Of a stretch of DNA of 64,000 nucleotides, positions 26,730 to 45,232 are shown in pieces. Under the pieces are notes generated by a model. The model was given only the letters and a program-made list of their open reading frames with translations, was not told the DNA's origin and ran no database searches. Source of the stretch: Acidimicrobiia bacterium. GTDB lineage: Bacteria > Actinomycetota > Acidimicrobiia > IMCC26256 > PALSA-555. How positions within the stretch are numbered: position 1 is the stretch's first letter; every line of letters begins with the position of its first letter. Where the stretch lies: positions 3,736 through 67,735 of the forward strand of contig JBBECS010000015.1 of the NCBI GenBank assembly GCA_040881685.1. Direction: 5' to 3'. The position numbers were made by a program, and so were the translations under genes.

Positions 26730-27134
26730 ATGAGTGTCGTGCGCATCAATGCCATCAGTGTCCCCACCGAACGCGCCGAGGAGCTCGAACGCAGGTTCGC
26801 CGCTCGGGCGGGGGAGGTGTCGGGTTCGCCCGGGTTCGAGGCTTTCGAGCTCCTGCGGCCCAGCGACGAGCGCGATGTGTACCTCGTGTACACCCGCTGG
26901 AGGTCCGAGGAGGACTTCAACGCGTGGGTGAGCAGCCCGGCATTCGAGCACGGTCACCGAGCGCACGCGACCGAGGGGCCGGTCACCAGCCACAGCGAGC
27001 TGTGGTCCTTCGAGGTGATCCAGCACGAGGAGGCGAGCGACCGTGGGACGGGTACCCCGGACCGCAGCGAGCCGGGGCCAGAGCGGCCCGGCGCGAAGCG
27101 CCGAGAGCGGAATCAGGAGTCGGCCGCGGGCTGA
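26730..27134 (+). CDS. heme-degrading monooxygenase-like ABM domain protein (MhuD/IsdG-like) with a repeat-derived C-terminal tail
   Basis: MSVVRINAISVP..ELERRFA.RAG.V..SPGF..FELLRP......YLVYTRW.SEEDF.AW is close to my memory of MhuD. The last roughly 30 residues (..PDRSEPGPERPGAKRRERNQESAAG) are encoded by repeat copy E. Confidence 0.8.
   Translation: MSVVRINAISVPTERAEELERRFAARAGEVSGSPGFEAFELLRPSDERDVYLVYTRWRSEEDFNAWVSSPAFEHGHRAHATEGPVTSHSELWSFEVIQHEEASDRGTGTPDRSEPGPERPGAKRRERNQESAAG
27044..27110 (+). repeat. structured repeat copy E (inside the 3' end of the mhuD-like ORF)
   Basis: GGGACGGG-TAC-CCCGGACC, then GCAGCGAGCCGGGGCCAGAGCGG, CGGCGC-GAA-GCGCCG (27088-27102) and GAGAGCGGA. Positions 27080-27109 are identical to 115-144. 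Confidence 0.75.
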
Positions 27135-29622: not shown

Positions 29623-29648
29623 TGCGGCGCCGGAGGCGCTGGCCAGGG

Positions 29649-29693
29649 AGAGAGCGACCGCGGCGCACGTATCGTGCGTCGCAGTGAGCGACC
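29649..29693 (+). repeat. structured repeat copy M (direct repeat - hairpin - direct repeat)
   Basis: AGAGCGACC, then GCGGCGCACG-TAT-CGTGCGTCGC (29660-29682, one G-T pair), then AGTGAGCGACC. It lies between the convergent PRTase and pckG ends. Confidence 0.75.
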
Positions 29694-32301: not shown

Positions 32302-32331
32302 GACAGATTCCTCGCAAACTCGGGGGACAGG

Positions 32332-32377
32332 AGCGAGCGACCGCGAGTCGGGTATCCCGGCTCGCAGCGAGCGACCC
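32332..32377 (+). repeat. structured repeat copy B (direct repeat - hairpin - direct repeat)
   Basis: AGCGAGCGACC, then GCGAGTCGGG-TAT-CCCGGCTCGC (32343-32365, one T-G pair), then AGCGAGCGACCC. It lies in the divergent rpmB/DAK2 intergenic region. Confidence 0.8.
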
Positions 32378-34153: not shown

Positions 34154-36358
34154 GTGAATGAGCGCGTCGCGGCGGGGATCACCTTGCGCGAGCTGCGAGA
34201 CAAGCCTGCGTCCGACCTGCGCGCGGTGGGTTCGAAGTTGGCGACCCGGCTCGAGGCGATGGAACTCATGAGCGTGCTCGACCTGCTCGAGCACTACCCG
34301 CGTCGGTATCACGACCGCACCAAGGTCCAGGACATCGCCGAGCTGGCGATCGGCGAGGAGGCGACGGTCACGGGTGAGGTGAAGAAGGTCTCGGTGCGTC
34401 GACCGCGCAACCGCCGCCCCTTGGTGGAGATGGAGGTGTTCGACGGCACCTCCTACCTGCGGCTCACGTTCTTCAACCAGGAGTACCGGGCGAAAATCAC
34501 GGAAGGCACCGAGATCTCGGTCTTCGGCAAGGTCGACCTGTATCGCGGCCGGCGTCAGATGGTGAACCCCGCGCTCGACGTGCTCGGCAATCCCGGCGAG
34601 CAGACGACCGGCGTCCTGCTCCCCGTGTACCCCCAGTCGGGGAAGGCGGGTGTGCAGACGTGGGAGCTCCGGAAGGTTGCCGCGGAGCTGCTCCAGCGCG
34701 TTCGTGCTCGCGGGTTCGCCGACCCGGTTGATGTGGGCGTGCTTCGAGCGCGCGGCCTCGTCGATCGAACGACCGCCTATTCGGCGATCCACCGCCCTGA
34801 GACCTTGGGCGAAGTCGAGGTCGCCAAGGCGCGCCTCACGTTCGACGAGTTCCTCCGCATGCAGGTGGGCCTGGTCGCGCGCAAGCGTGCGCTCGAGCGC
34901 GATCGAAGTGGCATCGAGCATCAGGTCGACGGTCCGCTCGTCCCGGCGTTCCACGCCGCGCTCCCGTTCCCGTTGACTGACGACCAGCAGCGCGCGATCG
35001 CCGAGATCGGCCAGGACATGGCCGCGCCTGCGCCGATGCACCGGCTGCTCCAAGGCGAGGTGGGATCGGGCAAGACCGTGGTGGCGCTCACCGCGCTCCT
35101 GATGGCCGTGCAAGGCGGCTACCAAGGCGCGTTCATGGCGCCGACGGAGGTGCTCGCCGAGCAGCACGACCTCACGTTGCGATCGCTGCTCGACGGCCTG
35201 CACGTCCCGGCCGAGGGCAGCCTGCTGGGCGACCGGCCCATCGGCGTCGCCCTGCTCACCAACCGCACCGCGGCCGCCGAACGGCGCCGCATCGCCGACG
35301 GCTTGCGCTCGGGAGAGATCGACATCCTCGTCGGCACGCACGCGCTGATCTACGAGGGGGTCGAGTTCGCGCGCCTCGGCGTAGCGGTGGTCGACGAGCA
35401 GCACCGGTTCGGCGTCGAGCAACGCGACCTGCTGCGCGGAAAAGGTCCGCGGCGAGCGTCCCAAGGGGCGGCGCCGGGTATCCCGGCGCCTAGCGAGCCT
35501 GCCGAATACGGGGGATCCGACGTGCTCGTGATGACAGCGACGCCGATCCCACGGACGGCGGCGATGCTCATCTACGGCGACCTGGACCGCTCCGAGCTGC
35601 GCAGTCTCCCGGCCGGCCGTTCGCCGATCACCACCGAGATCGTGGGCCCGATGCCGATGGAGCGCACGCCGGTCTACGAGCGCCTGCGCGCCGAGGTCGA
35701 CGCCGGCCGCCAGGCCTACGTCGTGTGCCCGCTCGTGGAGGGTTCCGAGAAGCTCGAGGCCAAAGCGGCGACCGAGGAACACGCGCGGCTCGCGGCCGAA
35801 GAGCTTGCAGGGTTGCGCCTCGGCCTGCTGCACGGGCAGATGCCGTCGCGAGACAAGGAAGCGATGATGACGCGCTTCCGAGCGCACGAGATCGATGTGC
35901 TCGTCGCCACCACCGTGGTCGAGGTCGGAGTTGATGTGCCGAACGCGACCGTGATGATCGTCGAAGATGCTGATCGCTTCGGGCTCCTCCAGCTCCACCA
36001 GCTGCGCGGTCGCATCGGTCGCGGCGCGCACCGTTCGTGGTGCTATCTGCTCGCCGATCCGGTCACGAACGAAGCCAAGGCGCGACTCCAGGCGATGGTC
36101 AACTCCTCCGACGGCTTCGAGCTCGCGGAGCGCGACCTCGAGATCCGCGGCGAGGGCGCGGTGTTCGGCGAGCGGCAGTCGGGCTGGAGCGACCTCAAGC
36201 TCGGTCGCCTCCCGCGCGACGAGCCGATCGTGATGGAGGCCCGCGCCGTGGCCGAGTCCATCCTCGGCGCCGACCCAGAGCTCGAACGACATCCGCAGCT
36301 GCGTGAAGAGGTCGAGGATCTGCTCGGCGACGCGGTCGAGTTCCTCTTCAAGAGCTGA
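34154..36358 (+). CDS. recG: ATP-dependent DNA helicase RecG (carrying an in-frame repeat insertion)
   Basis: Wedge/OB N-terminus, then LLQGEVGSGKTVVA, VVDEQHRFGV, LVMTATPIPRT, HGQMPSRDKE and LHQLRGRIGRG. About 18-20 extra residues lie between the DEQH box and MTATPIPRT. Confidence 0.95.
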   Translation: MNERVAAGITLRELRDKPASDLRAVGSKLATRLEAMELMSVLDLLEHYPRRYHDRTKVQDIAELAIGEEATVTGEVKKVSVRRPRNRRPLVEMEVFDGTSYLRLTFFNQEYRAKITEGTEISVFGKVDLYRGRRQMVNPALDVLGNPGEQTTGVLLPVYPQSGKAGVQTWELRKVAAELLQRVRARGFADPVDVGVLRARGLVDRTTAYSAIHRPETLGEVEVAKARLTFDEFLRMQVGLVARKRALERDRSGIEHQVDGPLVPAFHAALPFPLTDDQQRAIAEIGQDMAAPAPMHRLLQGEVGSGKTVVALTALLMAVQGGYQGAFMAPTEVLAEQHDLTLRSLLDGLHVPAEGSLLGDRPIGVALLTNRTAAAERRRIADGLRSGEIDILVGTHALIYEGVEFARLGVAVVDEQHRFGVEQRDLLRGKGPRRASQGAAPGIPAPSEPAEYGGSDVLVMTATPIPRTAAMLIYGDLDRSELRSLPAGRSPITTEIVGPMPMERTPVYERLRAEVDAGRQAYVVCPLVEGSEKLEAKAATEEHARLAAEELAGLRLGLLHGQMPSRDKEAMMTRFRAHEIDVLVATTVVEVGVDVPNATVMIVEDADRFGLLQLHQLRGRIGRGAHRSWCYLLADPVTNEAKARLQAMVNSSDGFELAERDLEIRGEGAVFGERQSGWSDLKLGRLPRDEPIVMEARAVAESILGADPELERHPQLREEVEDLLGDAVEFLFKS
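35449..35503 (+). repeat. structured repeat copy C, in frame inside recG
   Basis: GCGGCGAGCGTCCCAAGG, then GGCGCCGGG-TAT-CCCGGCGCC (35470-35490, perfect 9-bp stem), then TAGCGAGCCTGCC. It is translated as RRASQGAAPGIPAPSEPA. Confidence 0.75.
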
Positions 36359-36918
36359 TGAAAGGACGCTTGCGGGTAGTCGCTGGTGAAGCGGGGGGAC
36401 TGCGTCTCGTCGCGCCGCCCAACTCGCGCCCGACCACCGACCGCGTGCGCGAGGCGCTCTTCTCCGCGTTGGGACCGGATCCCGTCCAGGATGCCGTCGT
36501 GCTCGACCTGTTCGCGGGGAGCGGCGCGCTCGCAATCGAAGCGCTCTCGCGTGGCGCACAGCGAGCGGTCCTCGTCGACGTCGATCGTGATGCCGAGGCG
36601 GCATGCGAGCAGAACATCCTGACGACCCGGTTCATGGATCGTGCGCGGGTCGAGCGCACCACCACCGAGCAGTTCCTCAGGCATCCACCCGTCGAATCGC
36701 CCTTCAACCTTGTGCTCTGCGATCCGCCCTACGAGCTGCCGGATGCGGAGGTGGCCACGGTGCTCCACTCGTTGCACGCCCCTGAGTGGCTGATGGGCGA
36801 CGCACTCGTGGTGGTGGAGCGGGCGGCGCCGACCTGGGAGCCGCCCGAGGGGTGGACGACCTCGTGGCAGCGCGGGTACGGCGATACGCTCGTGACGATC
36901 GTGCACGTGTCGTCCTGA
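36358..36918 (+). CDS. rsmD: 16S rRNA (guanine966-N2)-methyltransferase
   Basis: RVVAGEAGGLRL..P....RPTTDRVREALFS.L, DLFAGSGALAIEALSRGA and CDPPY. The ATG overlaps the recG TGA (TGATG). Confidence 0.9.
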   Translation: MKGRLRVVAGEAGGLRLVAPPNSRPTTDRVREALFSALGPDPVQDAVVLDLFAGSGALAIEALSRGAQRAVLVDVDRDAEAACEQNILTTRFMDRARVERTTTEQFLRHPPVESPFNLVLCDPPYELPDAEVATVLHSLHAPEWLMGDALVVVERAAPTWEPPEGWTTSWQRGYGDTLVTIVHVSS

Positions 36919-36939
36919 CCCGACGAAGGAGGGATCGGC

Positions 36940-37437
36940 GTGGCAACGGCGCTCTGCCCGGGCTCCTTCGATCCCGTCACCAACGGGCACCTCGACATCA
37001 TCGAACGCACGGCGCGGCACTTCGACACGGTGATCGTCGCGGTCATCCGCAACCCGCAGAAGTCCCAGTCGCTCTTCACCCTCGAAGAGCGCCAGGAGAT
37101 GCTGCACGAGGTGACCGCCCACCTGTCCAACATCAAGATCGAGTTCTTCAAGGGGTTGCTCGTCGAGTTCGCCAAGGACCACGGCGCGTCGGCCATCGTC
37201 AAGGGGCTGCGGGCCATCTCCGACTTCGACTACGAGCTCCAGATGGCGCAGATGAACCAGAGCCTGTCGGGCATCGACACCTTCTTCATCTCCACGAGCC
37301 CGCAGTACTCGTTCCTCTCGTCGAGCCTCGTGCGCGAGGTGGCGAAGTTCGGTGGCGACGTGTCGAGCATGGTTCCCGCCGTCGTCGCGAAGCGGCTCGA
37401 CGCCCGCTTCGGGGGGCCCAGCCGCGACAAGGCATGA
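36940..37437 (+). CDS. coaD: phosphopantetheine adenylyltransferase
   Basis: ALCPGSFDPVTNGHLDIIERTA and GLRAISDFDYELQMAQMN. Confidence 0.95.
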   Translation: MATALCPGSFDPVTNGHLDIIERTARHFDTVIVAVIRNPQKSQSLFTLEERQEMLHEVTAHLSNIKIEFFKGLLVEFAKDHGASAIVKGLRAISDFDYELQMAQMNQSLSGIDTFFISTSPQYSFLSSSLVREVAKFGGDVSSMVPAVVAKRLDARFGGPSRDKA

Positions 37438-37523
37438 GCCGAGCATTCGCGCCGCAGGTACCCTGCGGCGCACGAGGCGGGGCCTCAGCGGCCCGGCGCG
37501 AAGCGCCAGGAGCGGGAAGGTGA
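37434..37523 (+). repeat. structured repeat copy F, also a 29-codon intercistronic mini-ORF
   Basis: The ATG at 37434 overlaps the coaD TGA (ATGA). The ORF MSRAFAPQVPCGARGGASAARREAPGAGR ends at TGA 37521-23, which overlaps GTG 37520 of the next gene (GTGA). Hairpin 1 is GCGCCGCAGG-TAC-CCTGCGGCGC (37449-71) and hairpin 2 is CGGCGC-GAA-GCGCC (37494-37507). Confidence 0.75.
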
Positions 37524-38071
37524 GTGACCCGGGCCTCGGCCTCCCCCGATCATCGATCGCCGGTGCGCGTGGCCTCGAAGACCTCCTGTACGACCTGCGG
37601 GAGCTGATCGAGACGGCGCGCATGATGCCGATGTCGGCGTCTGTGCTCGTCAACCGCGACGAAGCGCTCACGCTCATGGAAGACGTGGTGGCGTCGCTCC
37701 CTGGTGAGCTGCGCGAAGCCCGCTTCTTGCTCAAGGAGCGCGACGAGTTCCTCGCCGAGGCCCAGCGCGAGGCCGCGGCCCTCATCGACTCGGCGCGGGT
37801 GCAAGCCGAGCGCATGGTCGAGCGGACCGAGATCTCGCGCGAGGCCCACCGCACGGCCGAGGAGATCGTCGCCAACGCCGAAGCCGACGCGCGTCGGTTG
37901 CGCCACGAAGCCGAGGACTACATCGACGCGCGGCTCGCGGCCTTCGAGGCTGGCCTCGAGCGGACGCTCGCGACGATCCGCAAGGGGCGCCAGCGTCTCC
38001 AGGTACCGCTCCCCGCGCCACACAGCGAGGACGACGAGCTCGCTCGCGATGTCTTCGACCAAGACACCTAG
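37520..38071 (+). CDS. coiled-coil protein (DivIVA/ATP-synthase-B-like; actinobacterial Rv2927c-type position)
   Basis: LEDLLYDLRELIETARMMPMSASVLVNRDEALTLMEDVV..LP.ELREARFLLKERDEF is followed by long heptad-like helices. The GTG start at 37520 is inferred, because the open frame runs further upstream through the repeat. Confidence 0.7.
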   Translation: MSDPGLGLPRSSIAGARGLEDLLYDLRELIETARMMPMSASVLVNRDEALTLMEDVVASLPGELREARFLLKERDEFLAEAQREAAALIDSARVQAERMVERTEISREAHRTAEEIVANAEADARRLRHEAEDYIDARLAAFEAGLERTLATIRKGRQRLQVPLPAPHSEDDELARDVFDQDT

Positions 38072-38120
38072 ATGGTCGCGCTCGGCCCGTTGAGCCCGTT
38101 CGGCTGCTCCGACGGTAACT

Positions 38121-38155
38121 GGGAAAATCTGGAAATCGGCGGTCGCTGCTAGGAT
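38121..38155 (+). promoter_or_regulatory. AT-rich patch / candidate promoter upstream of yceD-rpmF-plsX
   Basis: GGGAAAATCTGGAAATCGGCGGTCGCTGCTAGGAT contains TAGGAT as a possible -10 and an AT-rich stretch upstream. There is no experimental support. Confidence 0.25.
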
Positions 38156-38166
38156 CAGATGCCCAC

Positions 38167-38232
38167 CTCGAGCGGGCTCGGTGGAGCCGTCGGACCACCG
38201 ACGGAGGCGTTGCCTCGGCTCCCCCGCTCGAG
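38167..38232 (+). other. 66-nt nested stem-loop in the yceD leader
   Basis: CTCGAGCGGG (38167-76) pairs with CCCGCTCGAG (38223-32) and encloses CCGTCGG-ACCA-CCGACGG. It ends 36 nt before the yceD ATG. Confidence 0.55.
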
Positions 38233-42246: not shown

Positions 42247-42329
42247 AGAGCGAGCGCTCGCGTCGCAGGTACCCTGCGGCGCAGCGAGCGGGGCCCGAGC
42301 GGCCCGGCCCGCAGGGCCGAGAGCGGGAC
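42247..42329 (+). repeat. structured repeat copy G, abutting the smc start
   Basis: AGAGCGAGCGCTC, GCGTCGCAGG-TAC-CCTGCGGCGC (42260-82, one T-G pair), AGCGAGCGGGGCCCGAGCGG, CGGCCC-GCA-GGGCCG (42305-19), AGAGCGGGAC. An open frame through it ends at TGA 42330-32, overlapping the smc ATG at 42332. Confidence 0.8.
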
Positions 42330-42331
42330 TG

Positions 42332-45232
42332 ATGTTCCTCAAGTCGCTCACGCTGAAGGGCTTCAAGTCGTTCGCCGAGAAGACGACGCTCGACTTCGAG
42401 CCCGGCGTCACCGTGGTGGTCGGCCCGAACGGATCGGGCAAGTCCAACCTCGTCGACGCCGTGGCGTGGGTGCTCGGCGCCCAGGGCCCGCGCAGCCTTC
42501 GAGGCGGGAAGATGGACGACGTCATCTTCGCGGGCACACCGCAGCGCCAGGCCCTCGGGCGCTGCGAGGTCACGCTCACGATCGACAACACCACCGGCTT
42601 GCTCCCGATCGACTTCTCCGAGGTCACGTTCACGCGCACGCTGTTCCGCACCGGTGAGTCGGAGTACGCGCTCAACGGGGTGCCGTGTCGATTGCTCGAC
42701 TTGCAGGAGCTGCTGTCCGACACCGGAATCGGTCGCCAGCAGCACGTGATCGTCGGTCAAGGACAGCTCGACACGATCTTGAACGCGTCGGCCTTCGACC
42801 GCCGCGGCATCGTCGAAGAAGCCGCGGGCATCCTGAAGTACCGCAAGCGCAAGGAGCGCGCCGAGCGGCGGCTCCTCACCACCGAAGGCAACCTGATCCG
42901 CCTCAATGACCTGCTGCGCGAGGTCAAGCGCCAGCTCACGCCCCTCCAGCGCCAAGCGGAGGCCGCGCAGAAGCACGGGAGCGTCGTCGGGGAGCTGCGG
43001 GCGATCAAGCTCCACTTGGCCGGCCACCAGATCGCTGGTTTCCAGACGCGCCTCGAGCGTCTGAACGACGAGCGGGCTGACCTCGCCACACGAGACGACG
43101 AGCTCCGAAGCCGTCTGCGCCAGCTCGACGACTCGGTGCTGGACGCAGAGCACTCGCTCACGGCACTCGGGGGCGATGGCGTCGCCGACTGGGTGGTGCG
43201 CGTCGAATCGCTGCGCGAGCGCGGGAGAGGTCTCGCGGCACTCGTCGGCGAGAAGCGTCGCGGTGTCCAGCGGGAGCTGACCGCCGCGGCCGACATGGGC
43301 GTCGCGGAGACCCTCGTTGCCGATCAGGTCGGGTTGCGCAACGAGCTCGAGACGCTCGACGCGCAGGTCGATGGGCTCACGCTGCCCGGCACCGATGCGC
43401 AGATCGCGGCAGACACGGCCGAGGAGACGCTGAGCGCGGCCGAGGATCGCTGGCGCGTCGCCGAAGGAGATGCGGCGCGCGCCCGCGCCCGCGCCGACGC
43501 CATGGAGCAGCAGCTGCGAGCGGCGCGCGCCGATGCCGCCACGGCGGAGCTGGACGCGATCGACGGTGTCGTTGGCCCGGTGATCGATCACCTCGAGATC
43601 GAGTCGGGTGCCGAGGCCGCCGTTGCCGCCGCGCTCGGCGAGGCGATGCGCGCCGTGGTCGTGCGCGCCGGCGACGCGGCGAGGTCGGCGGTCGAACGGC
43701 TGCATTCGGGCGACGCGCGCGCGCTCGTGCTCGTGGTCGATCCCGACCGCACGCCGTCCCTGCGCAGCGTTGATGCGCCGCCAGGCGCGCGCCCGGTGGT
43801 CGACCTCGTCCGCACGCAGGTTCCTGGTCTCGCCGAGGCGCTCGCGCGTCTGCTGGCCCGGTCGGTGCTCGTGGGAGACTGGCGCACCGCGCTTGACCTC
43901 GTGCTGGCTCGGCCCGATCTCGTCGCGGTGACCACCGACGGCGACCGGCTCGGTGGTGACGGCGTCTGGAACGTTGGAGGCGCGGCGGCCCCGGTCATTA
44001 CCCAAGCCGCGCTCGACGAGGCGCTCGCGCGGGCCGCGGCGGCCGACGTCACGCGGGCCGAGGCCCAGCGAACGGTCGAGTCGGCCCGGGCCGCCCTGGC
44101 TGCGGCGCGCGCGGCGGAGCTGCGGCGGGCCGCGGTCGAAGAGCGCCGCGCCGTGCTCGCGGCGCGCCTCGGCGAGGTCGAGGCGAGGCTGGCGGCCCGC
44201 GACCCCGAGACCAACGCGGTGGCCGAGCGCCAGCGCGTGTCGCTGCTCGAGCGCGACGCCTCGTTCGCAACGCTGACGCGCCGGCTGGCCGACCATCGCG
44301 CCGCTGTGGACGCGCTCCACGATCGTGTGCGCGAACGGCGACGCCGGCAGGCCGACGCGGCACGCTCGTCGGCGGAGCAACTCGACTCCCTGCGCACCGA
44401 GCGTGCCGAGCTCGAGCGTGGGCTCGGCGAGGTCCGTGAGCGCCAGTCGCGCGCCGAGATCGATGACGCCGAGACGCGGATCAAGCTGGAGAGCTCGGTG
44501 GATGTGCTGCGCACCGAGTTCGACGTGGAGCCTGCCGCCGCGCTCGATGCGCCCGCGCCCGCGGTGCCGGAGGGCACCACGCTCGCGGGCCGTGCTCGCG
44601 AGCTCGAGCGCGAGGTGCGCTTGATGGGCCCGATCAACCCGCTCGCGCTGGAGGAGCACCGCGCTCTCGAAGAGCGCCACGAGTTCCTCTCCGGGCAGCT
44701 CGAAGACGTGCGCTCGAGTCGCAAGGAGCTCACGCGCGTCGTGCGTGCCGTGGACGCTGAGATCGTGAAGGTCTTCGAGCAGGCGTTCGCCGACGTGTCG
44801 GAGCACTACATGCGGCTCTTCGCCACGCTGTTCCCCGGCGGCCAGGGTCGACTCCTGCTCACTGATCCCGAGAACCTCCTCGAGACCGGGATCGAGATCG
44901 ACGCCCGTCCGTTGGGCAAGAACGTCCGGCGGCTGTCGCTGCTGTCGGGTGGCGAGCGTTCACTTGCGGCGCTCGCGTTCCTGTTCGCGGTGTTCCGCGC
45001 CCGCCCGTCGCCCTTCTACCTGCTCGACGAGGTCGAGGCCGCGCTCGACGACGTGAACCTGCACCGGTTCCTCGATCTCGTCGACGAGTTTCGCGACGAA
45101 GCGCAGCTGGTGATCGTCACGCACCAGAAGCGCACGATGGAGGCTGGCGACATCCTCTATGGCGTCTCGATGCCGCCGGGCGGGTCGACCCGCGTCGTCT
45201 CGCAGCGCGTCAGCGACGTCGTCGAAGCCTGA
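42332..45232 (+). CDS. smc: chromosome segregation protein SMC
   Basis: MFLKSLTLKGFKSFA...GPNGSGKSN, long coiled coils, hinge (IDGVVGPVIDHLEIE..AVAAALG), and the C-terminal LSGGERSLAALAFLFA and FYLLDEVEAALD. Confidence 0.95.
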   Translation: MFLKSLTLKGFKSFAEKTTLDFEPGVTVVVGPNGSGKSNLVDAVAWVLGAQGPRSLRGGKMDDVIFAGTPQRQALGRCEVTLTIDNTTGLLPIDFSEVTFTRTLFRTGESEYALNGVPCRLLDLQELLSDTGIGRQQHVIVGQGQLDTILNASAFDRRGIVEEAAGILKYRKRKERAERRLLTTEGNLIRLNDLLREVKRQLTPLQRQAEAAQKHGSVVGELRAIKLHLAGHQIAGFQTRLERLNDERADLATRDDELRSRLRQLDDSVLDAEHSLTALGGDGVADWVVRVESLRERGRGLAALVGEKRRGVQRELTAAADMGVAETLVADQVGLRNELETLDAQVDGLTLPGTDAQIAADTAEETLSAAEDRWRVAEGDAARARARADAMEQQLRAARADAATAELDAIDGVVGPVIDHLEIESGAEAAVAAALGEAMRAVVVRAGDAARSAVERLHSGDARALVLVVDPDRTPSLRSVDAPPGARPVVDLVRTQVPGLAEALARLLARSVLVGDWRTALDLVLARPDLVAVTTDGDRLGGDGVWNVGGAAAPVITQAALDEALARAAAADVTRAEAQRTVESARAALAAARAAELRRAAVEERRAVLAARLGEVEARLAARDPETNAVAERQRVSLLERDASFATLTRRLADHRAAVDALHDRVRERRRRQADAARSSAEQLDSLRTERAELERGLGEVRERQSRAEIDDAETRIKLESSVDVLRTEFDVEPAAALDAPAPAVPEGTTLAGRARELEREVRLMGPINPLALEEHRALEERHEFLSGQLEDVRSSRKELTRVVRAVDAEIVKVFEQAFADVSEHYMRLFATLFPGGQGRLLLTDPENLLETGIEIDARPLGKNVRRLSLLSGGERSLAALAFLFAVFRARPSPFYLLDEVEAALDDVNLHRFLDLVDEFRDEAQLVIVTHQKRTMEAGDILYGVSMPPGGSTRVVSQRVSDVVEA

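Follow-up and report, generated by a model that had tools for sequence, protein, structure and literature searches.

In an Acidimicrobiia bacterium (assembly GCA_040881685.1, contig JBBECS010000015.1), we analysed a stretch of 64,000 nt, hereafter the window, and within it a short repeat element, copy F, that separates coaD from the gene that follows. The window has a GC content of 69%. The local genes all lie on the + strand, in the order recG (34154-36358), rsmD (36358-36918) and coaD (36940-37437), followed by an 82-nt spacer, a coiled-coil gene of 183 codons (37520-38071) and then yceD, rpmF, plsX and acpP. The upstream cistron, coaD, encodes phosphopantetheine adenylyltransferase (Pfam CTP_transf_like, E = 3e-27); its tblastn alignment with relatives extends to the C-terminus, and its 3' end reads GCA TGA, with the stop codon at 37435-37437. 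The downstream cistron encodes a protein conserved among homologs, with weak ATP-synt_B similarity, which sources call either ATP synthase b or DivIVA-like. Copy F (37438-37519, 82 nt, + strand), delimited by comparing filled and empty sites, occupies the spacer, and the in silico evidence supports a reading of it as similar to the interspersed repetitive units of mycobacteria (MIRUs), carrying a small open reading frame (ORF) that may relay ribosomes from one gene to the next.

Copy F is bounded on both sides by overlapping stop and start codons. On the left, the tetranucleotide ATGA (37434-37437, + strand) combines the coaD stop with an ATG at 37434; on the right, GTGA (37520-37523, + strand) combines a GTG at 37520-37522 with a TGA at 37521-37523. 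A preliminary description of the region had reported both overlaps and an open frame between them, and each is exact in the sequence: the frame runs from ATG 37434 to TGA 37521-37523 (+ strand) over 29 sense codons (MSRAFAPQVPCGARGGASAARREAPGAGR) and forms a putative relay mini-ORF. The two hairpins reported at the same time are likewise present on the + strand. Hairpin 1 (37449-37471) has a 10-bp stem, GCGCCGCAGG-TAC-CCTGCGGCGC, with the loop UAC in RNA, and hairpin 2 (37494-37506) is GGCGC-GAA-GCGCC, a GNA triloop with a C-G closing pair. An AGGAG resembling a Shine-Dalgarno (SD) sequence, contributed by the 3' end of the element (37508-37512, + strand), lies 7 nt 5' of GTG 37520.

The start of the downstream gene, previously placed at GTG 37520 as the most plausible choice, was checked by aligning homologs. 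All 28 of them (down to 57% identity) begin with M/V-S/T-D/E at the column of this GTG, which is in frame with the 183-residue gene and is the sole ATG, GTG or TTG in that frame between 37352 and 37622. We accept GTG 37520 as the start also because the deposited annotation agrees: the NCBI record P0001, 183 residues long and 100% identical, is named 'MAG: ATP synthase F0 subunit B [Acidimicrobiia bacterium]' (MAG, metagenome-assembled genome). The AGGAG is consistent with the same start. At the corresponding junction of the relative L001, a gene caller lengthened the downstream protein P0002 by 12 residues (MEARSAESGEGD) into the repeat (L001 3001-3036). Elements of this kind can thus produce wrong N-termini in annotations, in which callers sometimes extend the downstream protein, as in P0002, and the relay mini-ORFs are not called as genes.

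That the frame between the two overlaps is open is uninformative, because 72% of all 28-codon stretches in a window of 69% GC are free of stop codons; we rejected openness as evidence for the mini-ORF on this ground. None of the element's forward frames contains a stop, and the frame of the mini-ORF is open already from 36786. The paired overlaps and the 86-nt distance from ATG to GTG, by contrast, are not due to chance, because they go back to insertion of the element into an ATGA overlap and to a preference of its family for lengths of 3k-1 nt, one short of a whole number of codons.

The insertion is apparent when the same junction of coaD and the downstream gene is compared among relatives. 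We analysed 81 such junctions, including those of distant relatives. The site is empty in the close relatives L206 (88% protein identity) and L212, where the coaD TGA overlaps the ATG of the next gene (...GGCATGACCGAGCACGG), so that a single ATGA is both coaD stop and gene start. Filled sites have the form ATGA + 82 nt + GTGA, as in the window and in L005 (...GCCATGA + 82 nt + GTGACGGAGCACGG); the 82-nt inserts of these two are 89% identical, in agreement with the flanking coaD DNA at 88%. Direct ATGA overlap is the state found most often among the 81 junctions and is therefore ancestral. The inserted unit appears to consist of the 82 nt plus a duplicated (A/G)TGA, giving 86 nt (3k-1), and overlaps occur at both ends because the target tetranucleotide was duplicated, the left copy comprising the stop and an orphan ATG and the right copy the start and an orphan TGA. 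As judged from these sites, the left ATGA is the vestigial ancestral start of the downstream gene, and the two overlaps are two copies of one ancestral ATGA, a point missed in the preliminary description.

Other relatives carry altered forms of the insertion. In L001 (2871-3036), the orthologous copy of F is enlarged by a 12-nt duplication and by a structured insertion of 72 nt that is nested inside hairpin 2; these additions total 84 nt and yield a spacer of 166 nt with an intact relay ORF of 57 codons. L002, L210 and L003 retain element remnants of 16, 10 and 7 nt. The bridging ORF is intact across every one of these spacers (82 nt in the window, 82 nt in L005, and 166, 16, 10 and 7 nt), and in all derivatives an RTG (R, A or G) still sits on the stop of coaD and opens a frame whose TGA overlaps the real start. 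Comparison with orthologous coaD loci had been proposed as a way to judge the element, and it was found to be an insertion (sites empty in L206 and L212, filled in the window and L005, and holding extra sequence in L001), with frame and overlaps conserved in the relatives that carry the element or remnants of it (L005, L001, L002, L003 and L210).

By an explicit chain test, stop and start are linked at the coaD junction in 72 of 81 relatives. In 38, the start overlaps the stop directly or sits on it in frame; in 33, one relay ORF makes the link, and in 1, a series of three relays does so. Spacers bridged by one relay include lengths of 1, 4, 7, 10, 13, 16, 19, 25, 31, 82, 85 and 166 nt. The unlinkable frame offset, 0, occurs at 1 of the 81 junctions, and the coaD genes at unlinked junctions mostly end in TAG or TAA. 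This test, together with the context-dependent test on the family given below, replaced the use of spacer length modulo 3 alone, which we discounted at the coaD junction since shifts of the stop or start by point mutation keep the class. In L137, L138, L147 and L162, coaD ends in TAG and has no link to the downstream start; in two close relatives among the TAG-ending junctions, a 1-nt indel separates a spacer of 10 nt from one of 11 nt. The frame appears free to drift where the overlap is absent, which makes these junctions a useful internal control. Relay chains also occur elsewhere, at L040, L062 and L087.

Copy F had been described as one copy of a repeat, and nhmmer bears this out, with six copies in the window, all on the + strand. 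Four are full: copy A (49-148, E = 1.8e-11), which has both modules and lies upstream of a + strand gene, copy C (27030-27113), copy F (match 37433-37520, E = 1.4e-16) and copy G (42247-42333), which ends in GAGAGCGGGACTGATG. At least two are partial, and those at 29648-29690 and 32328-32373 consist of the hairpin-1 module only. Using a pattern from the conserved half, we searched species-representative genomes and obtained, among the matches listed, at least 120 stretches, nearly all in MAGs of Acidimicrobiia or Actinomycetota. Nine of these loci (L007, L014, L021, L045, L063, L064, L067, L079 and L084) belong to MAGs that bear the label Bifidobacteriaceae or Bifidobacterium breve; the copies there are high in GC and look like Acidimicrobiia copies, which suggests mislabelled or contaminated bins.

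The family has a common anatomy. From 5' to 3', a copy comprises (A/G/C)TGAG(C)GAGCG, a variable hairpin whose loop region is often GGTAYCC, then ...CAGCGAGCGGGGCC..., the mini-hairpin GGC(G/C)C-GNA-G(C/G)GCC, (A/G)GGAGCGG, a gap of about 5-6 nt and ATGA. A GGAG falls 5-7 nt before the next start. Among the family copies listed, with genes called heuristically in the fetched loci, the downstream gene is co-oriented with the element in 84 copies and opposed in 11, and the upstream gene is co-oriented in 59 and opposed in 14. The stop codon of the upstream gene falls within the 5' NTGAG of the element in about 40 of 60 copies. At the other end, 44 of the 81 copies with a co-oriented downstream gene have an in-frame start 0-7 nt after GAGCGG. 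An RTGA occurs within about 16 nt in 77 copies, and in 47 of these it follows GAGCGG at 5-6 nt.

Unit lengths, measured from the left RTGA to the right RTGA, peak at 86, 89 and 92 nt, whole codons apart, and lengths of 84, 85, 87 and 88 nt are rare. When copies were collapsed to 44 sites, 29 had a length of 3k-1 (binomial p = 1e-5 against one third), and all 29 of these contain an intact relay ORF ending on the right TGA. The preference depends on context: the length is 3k-1 in 16 of 18 copies that reach exactly from the stop of one gene to the start of another and in 6 of 17 copies with no gene on either flank (Fisher p = 0.0016). A pure founder effect would show no such dependence, and the relay frame appears, from the sequences compared, to be under selection that is itself context-dependent. 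The peptide is a different matter. The relay ORFs use each of the three frames of conserved module 2 (18:11:8), from which it follows that the relay peptide is irrelevant; no peptide is conserved.

Both hairpins covary across the family. Hairpin 1, which in copy F folds as DNA with -14.8 kcal/mol (z = -5.3), shows changes on both sides in 8 of 10 pairs, and 91% of cells are paired, compared with 32-47% when partners are slid; the set was pre-selected for having the hairpin, which biases the inner pairs and leaves the variety of pair types unbiased. In hairpin 2, the variable pair is C-G in 88, G-C in 51, A-T in 3 and a mismatch in 1 of 143 copies (L006-L125), and the loop is G-N-A throughout. 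Its triloop forms are GCGAAGC or CCGCAGG, closed by C-G. A GNA triloop of the GCGAAGC type closed by C-G is an exceptionally stable DNA mini-hairpin, and the motif hints at a role of single-stranded DNA in mobility. The suggestion that RNA structure might occlude the downstream start found little support: GTG 37520 is partly paired in the minimum-energy fold of the window, yet L005, L001 and L136 do not conserve this pairing. The long-range helix responsible, between 37473-37487 and the GTG region, was tried as a conserved occlusion and rejected, as the folds of those three did not reproduce it.

Taken together, we favour a reading in which an 82-nt mobile non-coding repeat inserted into an ATGA overlap, duplicated it and thereby formed a MIRU-like translational relay cassette that is harmless in operons, and we put its probability at roughly 0.7. 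It builds on the observed insertion and duplicated target, the established start codon, the covariation of the hairpins, the co-orientation with genes and the context-dependent selection of 3k-1 lengths. Copy F entered the ancestral 4-nt ATGA that joined coaD to its downstream neighbour, and the tetranucleotide was duplicated. The left copy still stops coaD and holds an orphan ATG; the right copy, now GTGA, still starts the downstream gene and holds an orphan TGA. Because the 86-nt unit (3k-1) is free of stops in all frames, the orphan ATG reads through to the orphan TGA. According to the proposed mechanism, a ribosome finishing coaD might then re-initiate at ATG 37434, translate the 29-codon relay, melting both hairpins on the way, terminate at TGA 37521-37523 and re-initiate at GTG 37520, while the AGGAG that the element contributes with its 3' end, 7 nt ahead of this GTG, would offer a second route to initiation. 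In this way the coupling of coaD to the downstream gene would survive the insertion. We infer from sequence that the relay is translated and contributes to downstream expression.

Several points weigh against this interpretation. The length statistics are partly confounded by descent from few master copies, and when distinct lengths are counted, the three classes stand at about 8:8:4. In about one third of the copies no start follows within 15 nt, and certain copies precede convergent genes, because of which the family is not exclusively intercistronic. Gene calls in the fetched loci come from a heuristic based on GC content at third codon positions (GC3), not from annotation. The size of the target duplication is defined by a single filled and empty junction, and it could be 3 nt (TGA), with the element providing the R. 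Given the phylogeny, either L206 lost the element precisely or the site was hit by two insertions. Lastly, the AGGAG would allow the downstream gene to initiate independently, in which case the relay would be dispensable.

This last point leads to the most serious of the rival explanations, that the mini-ORF is an unused by-product, the downstream gene being initiated independently from the AGGAG of the element and the open frame reflecting nothing but high GC. The SD at 37508-37512 is a good one, 28-codon stretches are open by chance in 72% of cases, the element is stop-free in all forward frames, target duplication yields the overlaps automatically and the length bias could derive from successful master copies. 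We nevertheless consider it rather unlikely, given that the bias towards 3k-1 depends on context (16 of 18 with genes on both flanks, 6 of 17 with neither), that the modal lengths of 86, 89 and 92 nt differ by whole codons with 84, 85, 87 and 88 nt rare, that the remnants of 7, 10 and 16 nt still hold a relay frame without the GGAG of the element, and that frame offset 0 occurs at only 1 of 81 junctions. Still less credible is a functional micropeptide of 29 residues. The ORF does begin with ATG and has a conserved counterpart in L005 (MSRGRAPQVPCGARGGAQAARREAPGAER), but with module 2 read in three frames (18:11:8) the peptides are unrelated across the family, the relay ORFs at the coaD junction span 2 to 57 codons in relatives, and the sequence is of low complexity and rich in Ala, Arg and Gly, as GC-rich DNA would give; we regard this as highly improbable.

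The strong covariation of both hairpins, and a hairpin 2 of the C-G-closed GNA-triloop type (GCGAAGC) noted above as unusually stable in DNA, are what might be expected of a structural element akin to repetitive extragenic palindromic (REP) sequences, bacterial interspersed mosaic elements (BIMEs) or palindrome-associated transposable elements (PATEs), with functional hairpins and an irrelevant ORF. The hairpins could act as DNA, bound by a transposase or another DNA-binding protein, or as RNA, stabilising the upstream mRNA or attenuating or processing the transcript, and the copies that lie after genes with no start following would fit such an element. The element, however, shows no T-tract terminator and no promoter-like site, its co-orientation with genes (84 versus 11) is unlike the alternating arrangement of REP and BIME, and a purely structural role leaves unexplained the 3k-1 bias, the precise placement from stop to start and the spacing of the 3' GGAG. 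We therefore judge this explanation improbable as a full account, more so than the by-product; it is also compatible with a relay, since the relay may keep harm low and the hairpins play a part in mobility or in the fate of the mRNA.

A bolder proposal extends the relay interpretation to the family as a whole, and we hold it only tentatively. Relay-carrying transposable elements might form a previously undescribed family that is widespread in Acidimicrobiia, target TGA/ATGA junctions, be recognised by an enzyme through their hairpins, have an origin independent of MIRUs and have been co-opted repeatedly. The hairpins with the GNA triloop and the GGTAYCC loop would then be recognised by a candidate enzyme, possibly of the HUH/Y1 type; stop, relay ORF, SD and start would be selected as one cassette; and co-option would have produced tunable intercistronic valves, tandem variable-number tandem repeat (VNTR) arrays and in-frame insertions such as that in RecG described below.

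Other copies show the element in further settings. In other genomes (L010, L017, L020, L046, L055, L062, L080, L092, L101, L104 and L115), 2-3 units follow one another head to tail, and the period is 86, 88, 92 or 93 nt; in arrays with a 3k-1 period (86 or 92 nt), each ATGA both ends one relay and begins the one after it. Copy F is a single unit, and the arrays are potential VNTR loci. In the window, copy C has the 5' edge GGAGGCGAGCG instead of TGAGGCGAGCG and so lacks the 5' TGA, because of which an ABM-domain ORF (26730-27134) runs through all of copy C and acquires a C-terminal tail of about 35 residues, with its stop at 27132-27134. At copy G, a TGA overlaps the ATG of smc at 42332 by 1 nt, an arrangement also found in the orthologous copy of species L031; we rejected copy G as a second perfect bridge, since a gap of 75 nt separates the end of the upstream acylphosphatase gene from the element. 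The RecG protein encoded upstream of coaD contains a 21-residue in-frame insertion (PRRASQGAAPGIPAPS..AEYGGS; window 35440-35502) between helicase motifs. It includes a family-like hairpin, GGCGCCGGGTATCCCGGCGCC followed by TAGCGAGCC, and is absent from RecG of the close relatives L001, L002 and L005.

Searches for a known counterpart gave little. A scan of 36900-38200 against Rfam 15 at E <= 10 returned chance-level matches only (E >= 1.4), blastn of the element against plasmid and phage collections gave no match, and a scan of the element for promoters and terminators found neither, T-tract terminators included. In the searchable literature, which was limited, we found no earlier description of such a repeat in Acidimicrobiia.

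The coaD junction would offer an independent natural replicate, outside Mycobacterium, of a selfish repeat that settles where an operon leaves least room, in a stop/start overlap of 4 nt, and does so by carrying a relay ORF and a ribosome-binding site of its own. Codon-length selection limited to one context, combined with 81 versions of a single junction, makes for unusually clean sequence evidence of selection on termination-reinitiation coupling, and the family provides material for testing translational coupling. The 86-nt cassette of stop, relay, hairpins, SD and start is a ready natural part for bicistronic design, and in uncultured Acidimicrobiia the tandem copies might be used as VNTR markers.

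Among known systems, short palindromic repeats share some properties with the family. REP and BIME sequences and the palindromic elements derived from IS200/IS605 are likewise short, GC-rich hairpin repeats, extragenic and present in many copies per genome. The family described here differs in being co-oriented with transcription, in reaching exactly from stop codon to start codon, in its head-to-tail tandem units, in its SD and start context, in its codon-length selection and in having no terminal inverted repeats. A REP or BIME assignment, with which the stable hairpins would agree, fails on orientation, as the copies keep a single orientation with the genes and a fixed stop-to-start placement. 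An assignment to miniature inverted-repeat transposable elements was also rejected, as the 5' end (GCCGAGCATTCGCG) does not match the reverse complement of the 3' end (CTTCCCGCTCCTGG); the two ends share direct GAGCG motifs, not inverted repeats. Rickettsia palindromic elements (RPEs; PMC3184786) resemble the family as stop-free hairpin repeats able to sit inside reading frames, and the window has two RPE-like cases, the 21 residues inserted into RecG and the C-terminal tail of the ORF with the ABM domain. Unlike an RPE, copy F lies between two cistrons and has its own relay ORF instead of residing inside a protein-coding gene.

With respect to mechanism, the proposal resembles termination-reinitiation at NUGA and the 'ribosome-delivering' short upstream ORFs (PMC12548453), both in the two -4 overlaps (ATGA and GTGA) and in a relay whose sole role would be to hand the ribosome on. 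The difference is that the short ORF was brought here by a mobile repeat and did not evolve in place.

The closest counterpart is the MIRU. MIRUs insert at start codons, whereby the MIRU ORF becomes coupled at -4 spacing (PMC12548453); according to Delihas (2011), they are 40-100 bp long, occur in 40-50 copies and are transcribed within polycistrons, with tetranucleotide direct repeats at filled sites, ORFs that overlap the adjacent genes and GC-rich internal inverted repeats (PMC3184786). The hallmark that the preliminary description had named, stop/start overlaps with small ORFs that couple genes, is stated in both sources, which also summarise the MIRU work of Supply et al. (1997). Like MIRUs, members of the copy F family are interspersed repeats in this size range, sometimes in tandem, that are found between genes of operons and oriented with them, contain GC-rich internal inverted repeats and belong to hosts of the phylum Actinomycetota. 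Copy F itself shares the insertion at a start codon or stop/start overlap, the tetranucleotide direct repeat at the filled site and the small ORF that overlaps the upstream stop and the downstream start at -4 spacing. In contrast to MIRUs, the hosts are uncultured Acidimicrobiia known from MAGs and not Mycobacterium, two strongly covarying hairpins, one of them a GNA-triloop mini-hairpin, are prominent, and some copies have been absorbed into coding sequence, as in the tail of the ABM protein and the insertion in RecG. The likeness is one of functional features, and membership of the mycobacterial family is not claimed. The principle is thus already known from MIRUs, and what the coaD junction adds is an independent case in Acidimicrobiia.

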